Assembly: GCA_044869275.1 (NCBI GenBank)
Contig: JBIOXB010000026.1
Coordinates: 1 to 7,424, forward strand
Direction of reading: 5' to 3'
DNA: 7,424 bases
Source: a bacterium
Lineage (GTDB): Bacteria; Zhuqueibacterota; Zhuqueibacteria; Zhuqueibacterales; Zhuqueibacteraceae
How positions within the stretch are numbered: position 1 is the first letter of the stretch; each line of letters starts with the position of its first letter. Shown here one piece after another: positions 1-6,000 of this stretch. A program made the position numbers.

Positions 1-3000
1 CAATTTGAATCGCATAGGATGGTTCCTTGGTTTGGTATGGGTATCCAAACCAATATACCAAATCTCAAAAAACGGAGCCATCCTACTATTTTTCAAAGAA
101 CTCTTGCGCTTAAATGAACGGTATTGGTCTTAAGCCAGAGCTTGAAGTTAGCGGCGGAGTAACCAAAGAATCTTGCCGTGGCGTCACTATTGGTGGTTTC
201 TTTTGATCAGGTTTTGGAGCCGATTTTGAAAGCGAAGCAATTCTTATTTGCCTCTTGGAGCCGATTTTGAAAGCGAAGCAATTCTTATTTGCCTCAATGT
301 GTCTGCTCGCAATGGGTTGAGCCCTTGCCGCAGAAAGATTTTTTCCTCCAAGGTTTCGTATCCCACGGAGGAAATGAGAAGATCGTGCTCACCCACAGCC
401 TGCTCGAGATGCTCCCTTTCGGCAGGCGGGATGATCTTGCCATCAATCAAGACTTCAGCGCTTTCCGGTACGACTGCAATCGCGAAGGTCGCCGCGGGGA
501 TCAAAGTGTAAGACAAGGTCGTATCCAGCACCCCCTGCAACGCGAAGGAAGTGTCGATACTGAAGTACGTCGATTTTTGAAGCAAGACGCGAAGCGTGTC
601 GACATCGACAAAGCGGCTGACCAACGGACTCCTCCCGGCGGATTTTCCCGCGAGCCTGATCTCTGCACCCTCCGGCACGGTGCGAATGGCCACTTTGGTT
701 GGGGAAAGGATGCCGGCCCCTCGCAGAATGCGAAGAGGCAGATCGGGCACGGCAAATATGGTGATGAGAGCCAAAACCAAAACTACGCTGATGATGCCCC
801 AGCTGATTTCGAACGTCAATCTGATCCGCTGCCGACTTACGGCGGAAGGATCTGCATTTGCTTTTTGGATCTCCTCAAACTTCACAATTGCCGCCAGCAT
901 GTCCCGGGCGCTGCGAAAACGCTTCTCCGGTTTTACTGCGATCGCCTTCCTGATGATTCTGCTCAGCTCGTTTGGCACCGCAGCATTGAATTTCGTCGGT
1001 AGCGGAAAATTACCGCGCAAAATGGCATTGAGAATTTCGACCGTCGTTTTTTTTTCTTTCAAGGGCATGTATCCCGCCAAGACTTCATAGCAGGTCATGC
1101 CGAGAGAATAAATATCACTGCGATGATCGACCACCTGGCCGTCGCTACTGACTTGCTCCGGCGACAAATAATACAGCGTGCCCCCGGTGTGCTCGGTTTT
1201 CGTGGACCGCGTGGCAGTGGGATTCGTTTGAATTTTGGCTAGGCCAAAGTCCATTACCTTCACTTCGCCGCCGGATTTGATCATCACATTACCCGGCTTG
1301 AAATCGCGGTGAATGATGCCGGCTTGATGAGCATGATCGAGCGCCGCCAGCATCTGCTTCACAATGGGCATGGCCTCTTGAAGAGGCAATGCTCCGGTTT
1401 GCTCCAGTTTCTCGTCCAACGTCACACCCTCGACGTATTCCATGACGAGGTACCAGCAATCCCGGTTTTTTATCAAATCATGAAGGATGACAATATTGGG
1501 ATGATTCAGCCTTGCCAGCGCTTTCACCTCTTTTTTGATGCGTTCGAGGTCTTTGGCATCGTCGGGAGAGGAAGCTTTCATTTCTTTCAAAGCAACGAAG
1601 CGCTCAGCCAGCAGATCATAGCCGTGATACACGATTCCCATACCGCCCTCGCCCAGGAGCCTTTCGATGCGGTATCTCTCGTTAACGATATCGCCGCTTT
1701 TCAGCATCTCGGTTTTATAAAAAAGGATTCAACTGCTTCATACAAGCGCAAGGAAGGCAGAGCGAAGATGAGGCCGCATGCACGGCGTATGTGCTTCTCG
1801 TAGAGAAAAGCACGCTATATTGGAATCAGTGTTGATTTACAAATTCAAGAAAGGAGTCCCACAGGCAACGTACGCGAGGGGATAATATACTGGGAACGTC
1901 CAAAGAAGCAAGCATTTATATTTAACTGGAGGGAAAGTATGGGCAGTTCAAACCGAAGCAACGCCGGCTCAACCTCACTCTCCAAACTTGATGGGCATTT
2001 TACAGAAGCCTTCAAGGCGGTCGCCCGCCAAACCAGGCCCATGCCGCGACGATCTGACAAGGCTAGTATGAAAATTCGCGCCTTACACTCAACGCCTATT
2101 CGCCCCCACCCTCTCAAACAACTCGTCAAACTCGTTGACCCGATTCTTCCAATCAAATTTTGCAAAAACGCCCACCAACTCTTCGCGCACGTCGTCGAGC
2201 TGGCGATAGTCCGCGAGCAAGCGCTTCAATTTTTGATGCAAATCTTCGTGGTCTTGATACAAGAATTGCCGGTGGAATTTCTCCGGCAGGATTTCGGGAT
2301 AGCTCAAACGATTGGGCAAGAGCGGCAAAGTGTAGCAATAAATCGCCTCGGCCACGGCATAGCCGAAATTTTCCTGAATCGCGGTGGACACGATAATATC
2401 TGCTTTCAAAACGAATTTAGCGTAATCTTCGATGCTTTCGACGAAGCCGAATTGCAGGATGCGTTCACCCAGTCGCGTGCGCGCTTCGATGAATTCTTTG
2501 GGATGCATCTGAAAATTCTCGCCAAGAATGACCAGCCGAAAATCGATGCCTTCTTCCAAGAGCTTGTACACTTCCGCAAAGAAAACGTGGGGCTGCTTGT
2601 CAAATTCCCAGCGATGATTCCACAAAATGACCGGTACCGGATTTTTGACGATGCGCCGGTCGGGGAAGCCGGAGAGATCCATGCCCATGTACATCACCTG
2701 CGTCTTCGCCATGATCTGCTCGTGCGCGCGCTCGGGCACGAATTCCGGAATGTCGTTGATGAATTGCTTCAACGTGCGATCGAACTCCCGGAATTGGTAA
2801 TGCGAATTGAACAAACAAACGTCCGCCGTGAGCGCGGAGACCACATTGACCAGGCCCAAATCGATTTCCGGTTTGTCGCCTTCGGGCGTGGGGTAGGTCA
2901 ATTGATTCTCATGAAAAAACATGATCGCCGGGCAGGTAAAGCCGGCCAGCGCTTTCAAGTGGGCGAGATTGAGCAAATCCGTGGCGATGATCAAATCGCA

Positions 3001-6000
3001 GTTGCGCAAGGCATGGCCGTAATTTTCGGCGATGTACATGGCCGCACTGCGCATGCGCCATTTCCAAAAGCGCGAGGGCAGGATGATGGGCGTGATCTGA
3101 TGGGCGCTGTATTTGATCAGACCGTCCATGTAACTTTTGTGTGATCCGCCATAGAAGGTTTCGATGAAAATGATGTTCACAGTTGCTTTCTCCGGAGTTG
3201 CTTGCTGGTGTCGGGTTTAATCAGTGATCAGTCATTAGTCAGCAGTAAAAATCCCTGATCACTGATGACTGATCACTAATGAGTACGGCTCACTTATTTC
3301 AGCAAAGTCATCTTGCGCGTGATCGTGGTTACATTCCCGGCCGGTGAAGTGGCTTGCAAGCGGTAGAAATAGATCCCACTGCCGGCGCGGGCGCCGTTTT
3401 GATCGCGCCCGTTCCAAACTACCCGCTCCTCGCCCGCGGCTTTCTGTGCATCGACCAGCGTCGCTACTTCACGGCCGAGCTGATCGTAAACGGCAAGCTT
3501 GACTTTTGCGGGCCACGGCAGGCTGTAGCGAATCGCGGTCGCGGTCCCGCCGTTGCGGAAGAACGGATTGGGATAGTTTTGCTGCAAAACAAATCCGCTG
3601 GGAATCGGCGAATCTTTCGACTCGACGCTCGAAGGCCGCGTGCCCACGGTGAAGCTGACGGGATAAACCACGCTTTGCAACAGCCGCACATCGTTGCCGT
3701 TGCCGGTTACGCCATCCTGCAGGAGATCCGCGTACCATACCGCCGTGCCGTTGTTGTCGATATAATGATAATACACGCGCCGGTCATCGCGCGAAAACGA
3801 GGGGCTGCCGAGCGAACTGAAATTGTCGGTGACCACGCCTTGATCGCCGCTGTCCAGATTCACCCCCAGCACTTTCACATTGCCTTGGGCATCGACAAAG
3901 TCAAAGGCGATGACGTTGTCGGTGTTCGAAGCGAACACCGCATTGCCGATGCTTACGCCCGGGCGTTGCGGCGGAAACAGGCGCGAGATCGTGCCGTCGC
4001 TGGTACGCAGCAGGTTGATGTCCCAGTATCCCGTGGTGTCCCCGTTCGAATCGACGATGATATTGAGGGCGTCGTACATCAAAATCTCGTTGTCAGAAGC
4101 CCAATCAATGCGATCGGGAAAAAGAATATTGCCCGCTTCCTCCCCCGGCGTGTAGGTCGGTGTGTAAAGTTGCGTCGGTTGGAAGGCCGGGCTCGGGCTG
4201 TCCAAATCGGCGAGGTAGATCACCGGCTGGCTGAGTGTGGTGGTCACGGCCAGGAAGCGGCCGCTCGGCGAGATCGAGACATTATTGAAGCCGCCGGAAT
4301 TGGTGAGCTGTTGCGGGTTGCCGCCATCCGAGCCGACGACGCGCAAGTTGGTCGTTTGGTCAACATAAAAAACCAAAGCGCCGTCATCCGTCACTGTCGG
4401 CCGGCTATACAGGGCCACGCTTGAAAGCGGCGTCGGCTGTTGTGCATTCGTCGTCACACGGAACAACTGTCCGGATTGTGCGCTAATCACGGCCAAGTAT
4501 TCCGTGCCTTGCACCGGCGGCAGAGGATCCGGCGGCGGCGTGCCCTCGCCGCTGAAAATCTCGACGGCATCAAATGCTTGCGCCGCAGCCAGGGCTTGCG
4601 CGCTGCCCGCGCCGTAAAGGTCTTCCGCGGACTTGGTCACCGCCAGGCGGCAATCGATGAATTGCGCGTTGCGCGTGAGATATTGCGCCAGCGCTCGATA
4701 ATAGACCCTTTCGGCAGCGGCCCGGCCCACCGCCGTGGCGTACAAATAAAACGCGCGATTGGGTATGCCGCTGTTGATGTGCACACCGCCATGGTCACCG
4801 TCCTCCGTGTTGGGCAGATTCTGATACTCGCTCATCTTGGTGGGCTGTTTACCGAATGCCACTTTGTTTGAAGCGGGATTTTCCATGTCGCGCAAAGCAT
4901 CACCCGCGATACTGGGCGTGGTAACATCCTCCCCGACCAGCCAGTCACCGTTGTTGCCCTCCACCCAAAATTCAAACAACACTCCAAAGACATCGGCAAA
5001 AGACTCATTCAGAGCGCCGGGTTGATTCTCATAAACCAAGTTCGCGGTATTCTCGATCACGCCGTGGCTCATTTCGTGCGCGGTTACATCCAAAGCCGCG
5101 GCGAGATCGCTGAATTGATTGCCGTCGCCGTTGCCGAAAACCATGAACTGGCCGTCCCAAAAGGCGTTATTGTAGCTTTGTTTGTAATTCACGGCTACAT
5201 TCATCGTCGTGCCGGCGCCGTCGATGGCGTTGCGGGCGTGCACCTGCGAATAGTAATCATAAACCAGCGCGGCGTTCGCTGCGGCGGAAACCGCCGGGGG
5301 GTTGTTCCACGAATTGGTGCTGTTGGAGGTGACGTAATACATTCGATCGCCTTCACCATTGCGCGCGTCAAACGTGTAAATAACGCCGACGCCCTTGTCC
5401 GGAAACGAAGAAGCAGCGGGATTGAACATGGGCTTGGAGGCGTCGATCAAATAGTACGGGCTGCCGAGTTGATAGATATTCAAATTGCGCGTGCGGTTGA
5501 ACAGATCCATCCCGGTGCCCGTTGCCGGACCGTCGTAAACGACGTGATTGTAGCGATGCAAAATCTCGCCGCTCTGCGCCTCGACGAAATAATGCCAATT
5601 CGCCTCCAGGCCGGCTCGCAATTGCACGAGCCAGGCCACATGCGCCACGTTCTCGTGGTCAACATAAATCAATTTGCGGCTGTGCGTTTCTCGCACGGCA
5701 GTCCCAAACTTTTGTTGCGCGATCTGTTCTGCTTGCACTTGCGGAATGCGCTCGGTATGGACCTCTATAACGGGCGTGGGAAGGTAGCGGCCGTTGAAAC
5801 TTTCCACCATGCCGTTTTGATTCAAATGCACCATCACCTCGCGGCCCCAGACTTCCAGGCCTTGATAGGTTTGTTGAAAGCGCACGTGCACCATGCCGTA
5901 AGCGTCGCGTTCGAGCTTGGTGAGGGAAAATTCCTCCGCGGGGTTATGCAGGCGCAGCAGGCCGGCATTCTCTAGGAGAAAGGCCTTTGCCTGTTGCGCC

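Follow-up and report, generated by a model that had tools for sequence, protein, structure and literature searches.

Introduction

Can a bacterium put a sugar on the queuosine (Q) of its tRNA, as animals do? This question is raised by a glycosyltransferase gene in a 7,424-nucleotide stretch of bacterial DNA (the window), the product of which resembles animal QTMAN. QTMAN, also called GTDC1, was reportedly identified as a tRNA-queuosine alpha-mannosyltransferase by Zhao et al. in Cell in 2023. The known bacterial decoration of the cyclopentene ring of Q34 is glutamyl-queuosine, made by GluQ-RS (YadB), which sits at the same allylic position as the animal mannose but is an amino-acid ester added by a GluRS paralogue and contains no sugar. 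Two sources likewise treat animal QTMAN/GTDC1 as a tRNA-queuosine alpha-mannosyltransferase (bioRxiv 10.64898/2026.06.28.735034; PMC11755703), and a third presents queuosine with a sugar as a modification of vertebrates or animals (PMC10690763). For the detection of manQ, the ion m/z 572 to 163 has been used (10.64898/2026.03.22.713446). The terms mannosyl, manQ, glycosylation and QTMAN are all absent from the first 300,000 characters of a compendium, dated 2026, of RNA modifications in bacteria (PMC13602947), and our literature search returned no paper on prokaryotic glycosyl-queuosine. The homology of bacterial proteins to QTMAN is already catalogued by Pfam and NCBI. For such proteins NCBI uses both DUF3524 and "tRNA-queuosine alpha-mannosyltransferase domain-containing" (P0016, P0095), and bacterial clusters under such names are also present in the ESM Atlas; these names were transferred by homology, and the term DUF3524 did not occur in the literature searched.

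Results

An intact gene for a QTMAN-like protein

The gene occupies positions 2089..3180 on the minus strand as an intact open reading frame with a GTG start and, in agreement with the survey's finding, encodes a 363-aa protein with QTMAN_N and Glycos_transf_1 domains. The acceptor-side domain QTMAN_N (PF12038, formerly DUF3524) spans residues 2-167 (2680..3177, minus strand; E 5e-53, 179.8 bits against a cut-off of 25), and the donor-side domain Glycos_transf_1 spans residues 183-332 (2185..2634, minus strand; 48.2 bits against 26.4). Both domains of the PF12038 family thus exceed the curated Pfam cut-off in the full-length protein, which is a member of the bacterial DUF3524/PF12038 proteins. 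We read an overlapping 401-aa open reading frame on the plus strand (1939-3144) as a mere shadow of the gene on the opposite strand; in the minus frame the GC content of the three codon positions is 0.54/0.31/0.69.

Conserved residues in QTMAN_N are H14, W39-K40-W41-R42, H90-E91-x-Q93, Y96-P97 and N125, and those in the Glycos_transf_1 half are the WNHRWE-D-K motif (R190, K195) and E270-x7-E278. We take R190, K195 and the E-x7-E pair to play the roles that they have in retaining GT-B enzymes. Across 140 family sequences H14, H90, E91, N125, R190, G220 and G273 were invariant, and all are present here; in the donor motif E270 is the consensus residue of the family alignment and E278 is conserved at 99%. 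The AlphaFold model (pLDDT 96.7) has a GT-B fold with two Rossmann domains, and with the E-x7-E motif the protein is predicted to be a retaining GT-B (GT4-like) enzyme. The best solved structures in a fold search were sucrose-phosphate synthase (Z 33, rmsd 2.5, 337 aligned) and BshA (Z 30.5), and a structure search found no solved QTMAN structure. A special fold link to nucleic-acid glucosyltransferases was discarded, as nothing stood out and the DNA-acting T4 alpha-glucosyltransferase ranked 37th (Z 22). The protein is like animal QTMAN in its two domains and predicted retaining GT-B fold, and in a host with predicted Q34 tRNA; it differs in its prokaryotic host and in being known from sequence and model, whereas the animal enzyme has an assigned donor (GDP-mannose) and tRNA (tRNA-Asp).

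Queuosine genes of the host

The survey's finding had credited the host with a complete queuosine pathway, which was an overstatement. Of the genes that it named, Tgt (with a GGLAVG motif), QueA, QueG and FolE are encoded, as are all four GUN tRNAs; QueE is represented by a QueE-like radical SAM protein, and QueD by an open reading frame recognized by motif only. QueC had no match in the host genome or in any of five same-family genomes of 99-100% completeness, and the sole match to QueF in the host lay below the cut-off and was the FolE gene. Because QueC and QueF are missing, the bacterium would have to take up a Q precursor. At the gene level the host is predicted to provide a Q34-bearing tRNA as acceptor. 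GluQ-RS, a competitor for Q34 of tRNA-Asp, was not found in the genome; a candidate on contig C171 turned out to be a frameshifted second GluRS.

Family spread and gene neighbourhood

A profile search found QTMAN_N in 17 of 18 same-family genomes, in line with the earlier count of at least 14, and of the 41 related genomes searched, 37 yielded a single match each (the unpublished G001 is counted among the carriers and G014 among the genomes without a match). On the family profile the gene scored 468 bits versus 44 for the next GT4 of the same genome, and the QTMAN-like proteins form a distinct, tight family. Carriers include archaea, spirochaetes, Chloroflexota and Bacteroidota, which have unlike envelopes, and the gene is retained in marine genomes of 1.5-2.5 Mb. 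Desulfatibacillum alkenivorans DSM 16219, Geothermobacter hydrogeniphilus HR-1 and Portibacter marinus are carriers available in culture. Plasmids and annotated phages searched with the 363-aa protein gave no match at 1e-15 and 1e-10, and none of the hits in our sequence searches was identified as an animal QTMAN. A metagenome scan yielded two short archaeal-type QTMAN-like loci among 80.

The survey had also remarked that no conserved neighbour ties the gene to tRNA, and this was borne out: tgt lay near one of 231 loci and QueA and QueG near none, the loci did not reveal any operon in which the gene is regularly joined to genes for tRNA or Q, and neighbours vary by lineage. We count this absence against a role at Q34. 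In the window the gene is flanked upstream by an M4 (thermolysin-like) peptidase with a C-terminal secretion-type domain (3294..6413, minus strand) and downstream by a Ser/Thr protein kinase with a PEGA domain (244..1707, minus strand), both outside the present finding; apart from the window, the peptidase adjoins the gene in no loci other than L020 and L031, the closest two. In the host's family an FdhD gene often precedes the QTMAN-like gene and a GT9 gene often lies farther up. One lineage has smpB, tRNA-Leu and tyrS-like genes as neighbours, and four spirochaete loci have an RsmB/F methyltransferase; the RsmB/F, smpB-tyrS and FdhD links were all set aside as lineage-bound. No recurring salvage transporter was seen among the neighbours.

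The QTMAN-like gene is not placed in glycan clusters (LPS, EPS, capsule). Another GT4 gene was located within 5 kb of 2/57 QTMAN-like loci versus 13/30 ordinary GT4 genes of the host, the other 17 of which likewise stand alone. GT9 was upstream in eight QTMAN-like loci and GT4 close to seven, and a fusion search returned one protein that joins a QTMAN-like part to a GH2 mannosidase-type domain, a weak case with a single member.

Co-occurrence with tgt and the Q34 pathway

In four phylum samples, all 90 carriers had a bacterial-type tgt and none of 68 tgt-less genomes carried the QTMAN-like gene. Of the three bacterial phyla, two have tgt in nearly every genome (249/251 and 134/135), which leaves Chloroflexota and one archaeon as the informative cases; Spirochaetota (tgt in 9/9 carriers) and the phylum of genome G351 (42/42) were dropped as co-occurrence tests. 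In Chloroflexota, tgt was present in 38/38 carriers versus 202/263 non-carriers, and 0/61 tgt-less genomes carried the gene (Fisher p 1.4e-4, overstated by kinship). Most of the nesting signal comes from this phylum, where kin are not independent. The majority of tgt-positive genomes have no QTMAN-like gene, and a co-loss of the gene with tgt in the host's own class is contradicted by family f4, in which 3/3 genomes have tgt without it.

QueA was rarer in Chloroflexota carriers (8/38) than in non-carriers (170/263). The eight carriers with QueA have a GGL[AS]VG Tgt together with QueG or QueH, and the 30 without it have Gly at the Tgt pocket position (GGSLG). A pocket motif rule for queuine insertion, GG[LS][AS]G, has been published (PMC11570991); GGSLG is not a literal match to it, and we read the Tgt of these QueA-less carriers as probably queuine-inserting. 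Every Chloroflexota carrier is thus predicted to have a route to full Q. The pocket check does not discriminate, because 32 of 34 QueA-less non-carriers share the Gly. Of the 30 carriers without QueA, 27 are probably kin, since they have one Tgt subtype in common. Carriers were enriched among tgt-positive, QueA-less salvagers (30/64 versus 8/176). The spirochaete carrier G349 had neither QueH nor QueG over the cut-off.

The archaeal sample comprised all five genomes of its phylum. Only G041 has the QTMAN-like gene, and likewise only G041 has QueA and a bacterial-type Tgt; QueH is present there as well, in a search that covered G041 alone of the five. The QTMAN-like gene lies on the same contig as PolD DP2. 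A seemingly broken tgt in this archaeon was dismissed, as the gene is interrupted just where the assembled sequence has a stretch of N.

Phage relatives in 7-deazaguanine gene clusters

Phage GT-B relatives were found in 7-deazaguanine gene clusters in 8/8 lineages examined, and viral relatives in such clusters at 55/57 IMG/VR loci. Among them are the enzymes of the DpdA/FolE/QueD/QueE/QueC clusters of Acidovorax phage ACP17, Xanthomonas phage X1 and Sinorhizobium phage Phosso, whose product is not described in the literature searched on these clusters. They have in common with the 363-aa protein the FHEN-motif His, R-x-x-x-x-K-x-P and E-x-x-G-x-x-x-x-E, but differ from it in their identity of only ~20%, in having no QTMAN_N match and in their acceptor, presumed to be DNA. 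Three phage-built profiles gave the 363-aa protein 82.6, 57.9 and 47.4 bits versus 20.6, 14.1 and 12.1 for the next genome hit, and the phage proteins scored 53-75 bits on the QTMAN-like family profile, modestly above ordinary GT4s (44); the two sides are reciprocal best profile hits in a comparison set of the host's own GT4s only. By hhalign the two groups aligned in the C-terminal half only, and the likeness appears to be mostly in the donor half. No QTMAN set was present among 30 ESM Atlas neighbours of one phage protein, and a quick tree placed the phage enzymes on a long branch, compatible with one clade. Because no queA was annotated in the phage regions examined, the phage acceptor cannot be Q, and the wider group must therefore have switched acceptor at least once.

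Discussion

We consider it probable, with some reserve, that the 363-aa protein glycosylates queuosine-34 of a GUN tRNA, as the survey's finding had proposed. Family membership, the intact fold and motifs, copy number and co-occurrence are direct observations. The Q34 reading is supported because the gene is nested in tgt-positive genomes, because an archaeon pairs it with a bacterial-type Q34 pathway, and because phage relatives are tied to 7-deazaguanine genes. The tight, single-copy family, its place outside glycan clusters and the failure to find a GluQ-RS in the host also favour it. The lack of tRNA-linked neighbours weighs against it, as do a phage likeness that is mostly in the donor half, the lower share of QueA among Chloroflexota carriers, the many tgt-positive genomes that lack the gene, the carrier G349, and the FdhD and GT9 genes that often precede it in the host's family. 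In the proposed mechanism, a stand-alone, single-copy retaining GT-B enzyme would take a nucleotide-sugar as donor and attach its hexose to the cyclopentene-diol of the queuosine in tRNA position 34; in the host, Tgt, QueA and QueG would produce this Q34 after uptake of a precursor. We infer that Q is modified while it is part of a tRNA. The substrate would be one tRNA with a GUN anticodon, or several; by parallel with animal QTMAN our first guess is tRNA-Asp, and mannose as the sugar is equally a guess.

The nesting in tgt-positive genomes and the phage context would be explained equally well if the acceptor were a 7-deazaguanine other than tRNA-bound Q, such as free queuosine or queuine (a storage or salvage form), epoxyqueuosine, preQ1 or DNA deazaguanine. 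The enrichment among QueA-less salvagers and the acceptor switch seen with the phages also speak for this. We nevertheless think it rather unlikely: the protein has a strong match to QTMAN_N, a Pfam family that takes its name from the animal enzyme for tRNA, whereas the phage proteins have none; tblastn with phage queries found no dpdA-like or QueC gene in the host; and the loci have no recurring salvage transporter. GT-B enzymes change acceptors readily, and single-copy, stand-alone GT4s with non-RNA acceptors are known (BshA, MshA, PimA). Against this background the protein could be an ordinary enzyme of the GT4 type whose acceptor is a lipid, a glycan, a protein or a small metabolite, with the animal tRNA activity as a later acceptor change; the closest solved folds, the many stand-alone GT4s of the host, the GT9 and GT4 genes near some loci and the GH2 fusion agree with this. 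We judge such a role improbable, as it predicts neither the absence of carriers among tgt-less genomes nor the archaeal QueA/Tgt/QueH co-occurrence and phage cluster link, and the carriers differ in envelope. Housekeeping-like copy number, the conserved basic-aromatic WKWR motif and the smpB, tRNA-Leu, tyrS-like and RsmB/F neighbours could indicate another nucleic-acid target unrelated to Q (a different base in tRNA or rRNA, or the end of an RNA); this seems very unlikely, as it leaves the tgt nesting and deazaguanine context without reason and the neighbours are lineage-bound.

Returning to glycosylation of Q34, the distribution of the family over genomes, together with its phage relatives, suggests that queuosine may carry a sugar in some bacteria and archaea too. 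More tentatively, and as a view that we would sooner question than assert, the family may be a 7-deazaguanine-specialised GT-B branch that glycosylates tRNA queuosine in thousands of bacteria and in an archaeal lineage with a bacterial-type Q34 pathway; phage offshoots would sugar-coat DNA deazaguanine, animal QTMAN would stand as a single late branch of the family, and glycosyl-queuosine would be an old prokaryotic tRNA modification. If the prokaryotic version is true, it would constitute a new bacterial and archaeal anticodon hypermodification, provide small soluble enzymes for structure work, and shed light on the origin of the animal enzyme.

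The window protein belongs to the QTMAN sequence family

The gene at 2089-3180 (minus strand) is an intact open reading frame encoding a QTMAN-like glycosyltransferase of 363 aa. Pfam bore out the domain pair reported in the survey's finding, with QTMAN_N at residues 2-167 (E 5e-53) and Glycos_transf_1 at residues 183-332, and no NCBIfam model exceeded its cut-off. The predicted structure was a confident GT-B fold (pLDDT 96.7) with 6kih as its top solved match (Z 33, rmsd 2.5, 337 aligned residues). The solved structures closest to this model are retaining enzymes of a general kind; the structure searches returned no solved QTMAN. 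Among 140 aligned relatives, H14, H90, E91, N125, R190, G220 and G273 were the same in every sequence; a WKWR stretch, K195 and E278 were almost fully conserved. By analogy with PimA-type enzymes, we take H90, R190, K195 and E270-x7-E278 to be an intact active site. The nearest named relatives carry the label candidate division KSB1. On sequence grounds the protein genuinely belongs to the QTMAN sequence family, and it is to this family, not to the QTMAN enzyme class, that we assign it.

QTMAN_N occurred once per genome in 37 of 41 relatives (of two unpublished genomes, G001 gave a match and G014 a miss), and the family profile scored the window gene at 468 bits in its own genome vs 44 for the next GT4. 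The window protein had no match in 72,556 plasmids or 50,697 annotated phages at 1e-15 and 1e-10. In the window the gene is flanked by genes for an M4 peptidase and a Ser/Thr kinase, and over 230 loci the neighbours differed by lineage. The survey's caution that no conserved neighbour links the gene to tRNA held: of 231 loci, one had tgt nearby and none had QueA or QueG.

Several other features were seen. By eye, short imperfect repeats (TGATCAGT/ACTGATCA-type) lie between the peptidase stop and the glycosyltransferase start (3206-3290), and a direct repeat of ~38 bases (GGAGCCGATTTTGAAAGCGAAGCAATTCTTATTTGCCT) lies across the kinase stop codon region (204-290). At 6571-7047 (minus strand) lies a 158-aa open reading frame whose N-terminus resembles that of a lipoprotein and which matched nothing in Pfam or NCBIfam. 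One family member, P0384 (1244 aa), is fused to a GH2 mannosidase-type hydrolase, though this could be two genes read through as one.

Carriers of QTMAN_N are nested within genomes with tgt

In 301 Chloroflexota genomes (completeness at least 95%), QTMAN_N was found in 38, tgt in 240 and QueA in 178. All 38 carriers had tgt, and none of the 61 tgt-less genomes was a carrier (p 1.4e-4, which overstates the significance, related genomes not being independent). QueA was present in 8 of 38 carriers vs 170 of 263 non-carriers, which at first spoke against glycosylation of queuosine-34 (Q34). The Tgt pocket types explain this scarcity. The 8 QueA-bearing carriers have the pocket GGL[AS]VG together with QueG (7) or QueH (1), and in the remaining 30 the pocket reads GGSLG, in which Gly replaces the Val of the preQ1-type enzyme. 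According to PMC11570991, Tgt enzymes that salvage queuine typically have GG[LS][AS]G; because GGSLG does not match this literally, we only infer that these enzymes are of the salvaging type. The Gly does not discriminate carriers, since 32 of 34 QueA-less non-carriers also have it, and 27 of the 30 QueA-less carriers share one Tgt subtype. In a quick tree the Chloroflexota QTMAN-like proteins formed several separate groups. About 17 of the 38 carriers have a second, divergent Tgt paralogue with a GGWPLD pocket motif (L238-L243 in G308, G119, G241, G254, G294 and G283), mostly below the curated cut-off, in which Gln replaces the last catalytic-motif Met/Val.

Spirochaetota (251 genomes, 9 carriers, tgt in 249) and the phylum of G351 (135 genomes, 42 carriers, tgt in 134) agree with this nesting but are uninformative. 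The spirochaete carriers had QueH (6) or QueG (2), and G349 had neither over cut-off. Summed over these three samples and an archaeal phylum, tgt was present in 90 of 90 carriers and QTMAN_N in 0 of 68 tgt-less genomes.

To our knowledge, Q34 synthesis by archaea is not known. In the archaeal sample (five genomes, completeness above 80%, exact values unreported), G041 alone had a QTMAN-like gene, and it alone had genes for a bacterial-type Tgt and QueA, which are adjacent; QueH and QueC are present as well (L124:2175-4349, L401:3917-4453, L402:209-910, L125:408-1526). The contigs were judged archaeal because of gene content (the QTMAN contig carries PolD DP2 and the queA-tgt contig SRP54) and a GC of 29-31%. 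G041 is thus an archaeon with a predicted Q34 pathway and the QTMAN-like gene on another archaeal contig, and this co-occurrence is one event. About 30 clusters were 75-100% identical to its QTMAN-like protein. G041 also has a separate archaeal-type TGT; an apparently broken tgt proved to be an assembly gap.

Queuosine genes in the source genome

The survey had listed FolE, QueD, QueE, Tgt, QueA and QueG, and all were recovered, QueE as a QueE-like protein (C232:2089-2721) and QueD as a QueD-like ORF recognised by motif (C12:22307-22843); FolE lies on C33. Tgt has the canonical pocket GGLAVG, and the tRNAs include Asp, Asn, His and Tyr. The claim of a complete pathway stands for the tRNA-side steps (Tgt, QueA, QueG) and fails for de novo synthesis, because QueC had no match here or in 5 of 5 near-complete relatives, and the QueF signal was FolE. 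We therefore infer that the organism takes up a queuosine precursor; FolE and the QueD- and QueE-like genes are nevertheless retained. A GluQ-RS candidate turned out to be a second glutamyl-tRNA synthetase gene within a tRNA cluster (C171:2719-4132), with a frameshift, real or an assembly error, before the anticodon-binding domain.

Phage relatives lie among 7-deazaguanine genes

The family alignment matched one relative in IMG/VR. Its cluster (L334:170-5809, IMGVR_UViG_3300035698_003099) holds folE, GAT-queC, a Gfo/Idh/MocA oxidoreductase, the glycosyltransferase, a TGT-like ORF and ParB, and adjoins terminase-like genes; this gene content predicts a sugar-bearing deazaguanine in DNA. Searches from this relative gave 6, 17 and 20 phage records. 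With one locus for each of seven lineages plus the IMG/VR locus, folE, queC, queD, queE or a DSGG-motif transglycosylase lay within 8 kb of the glycosyltransferase in 8 of 8. A 7-deazaguanine gene lay within 6 kb in 55 of 57 further IMG/VR loci (51 without the DpdL-like-only loci). The labels DpdA and DpdL are our own, without Pfam support; the names are used for ACP17 by Cui et al. (preprint, 10.1101/2023.04.13.536721), in whose accessible text no word begins with 'glycosyl', 'glucosyl' or 'sugar'. Likewise, 'glycosyltransferase' is absent from the accessible text of PMC6884629.

Against all six-frame ORFs of the source genome, the phage-protein profile ranked the window protein first (82.6 bits vs 20.6 for the next), as did the profile that left out the two proteins which were closest by selection (57.9 vs 14.1) and one of 54 IMG/VR proteins (47.4 vs 12.1). 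The phage glycosyltransferases had no Pfam match to QTMAN_N, aligned with the QTMAN-like family by hhalign over the donor half alone, and sat on a long branch in the tree; an ESM Atlas check of one of them displayed no QTMAN set among 30 neighbours. A PIG-L deacetylase travels with the glycosyltransferase in Xanthomonas phage PhiXhv-12 and Burkholderia phage BCSR5 (L336:5855-9941, L337:6407-10040), and a Gfo oxidoreductase also does so in PhiXhv-12, a hint that the sugar is a modified amino-sugar and not mannose. A GlmS annotation in PhiXhv-12 was rejected, the gene being GAT-QueC.

A candidate Q34 glycosyltransferase in bacteria

Homology of bacterial proteins to QTMAN is already catalogued, since NCBI names one a tRNA-queuosine alpha-mannosyltransferase domain-containing protein. 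Glycosyl-Q in prokaryotes was not reported in the available text of the literature searched (10.64898/2026.03.22.713446, PMC11755703, PMC11570991, PMC13602947 and PMC10690763 among others), which did not extend to Zhao et al. 2023 or the 2024 MMBR review; these two may comment on prokaryotic homologues. 'DUF3524' was not mentioned in the literature searched. In its accessible part, 10.64898/2026.06.28.735034 describes QTMAN with GDP-mannose and tRNA-Asp and lacks the terms 'homolog', 'ortholog' and 'archaea'.

We consider it probable that the window enzyme glycosylates tRNA-bound Q. The C-terminal domain would hold a nucleotide-sugar, QTMAN_N would hold the anticodon loop and so position the Q34 diol, and the sugar would pass to this diol with retention, as is described for QTMAN. 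Family, fold and distribution are demonstrated here, the acceptor is deduced, and which sugar and which tRNA it would use are guesses. Another deazaguanine as acceptor, in line with the deazaguanine-sugar product predicted for the phage enzymes, seems unlikely. A lipid, glycan or metabolite is no likelier. Among 57 loci flanked by 5 kb on each side, another GT4 lay within 5 kb in 2, vs 13 of 30 ordinary GT4 genes of the source genome (p 8e-6), a scarcity that argues against a glycan-cluster role and gives no positive tie to tRNA. That the target is another RNA position we regard as very improbable. Altogether, the window protein most likely works like a QTMAN enzyme.
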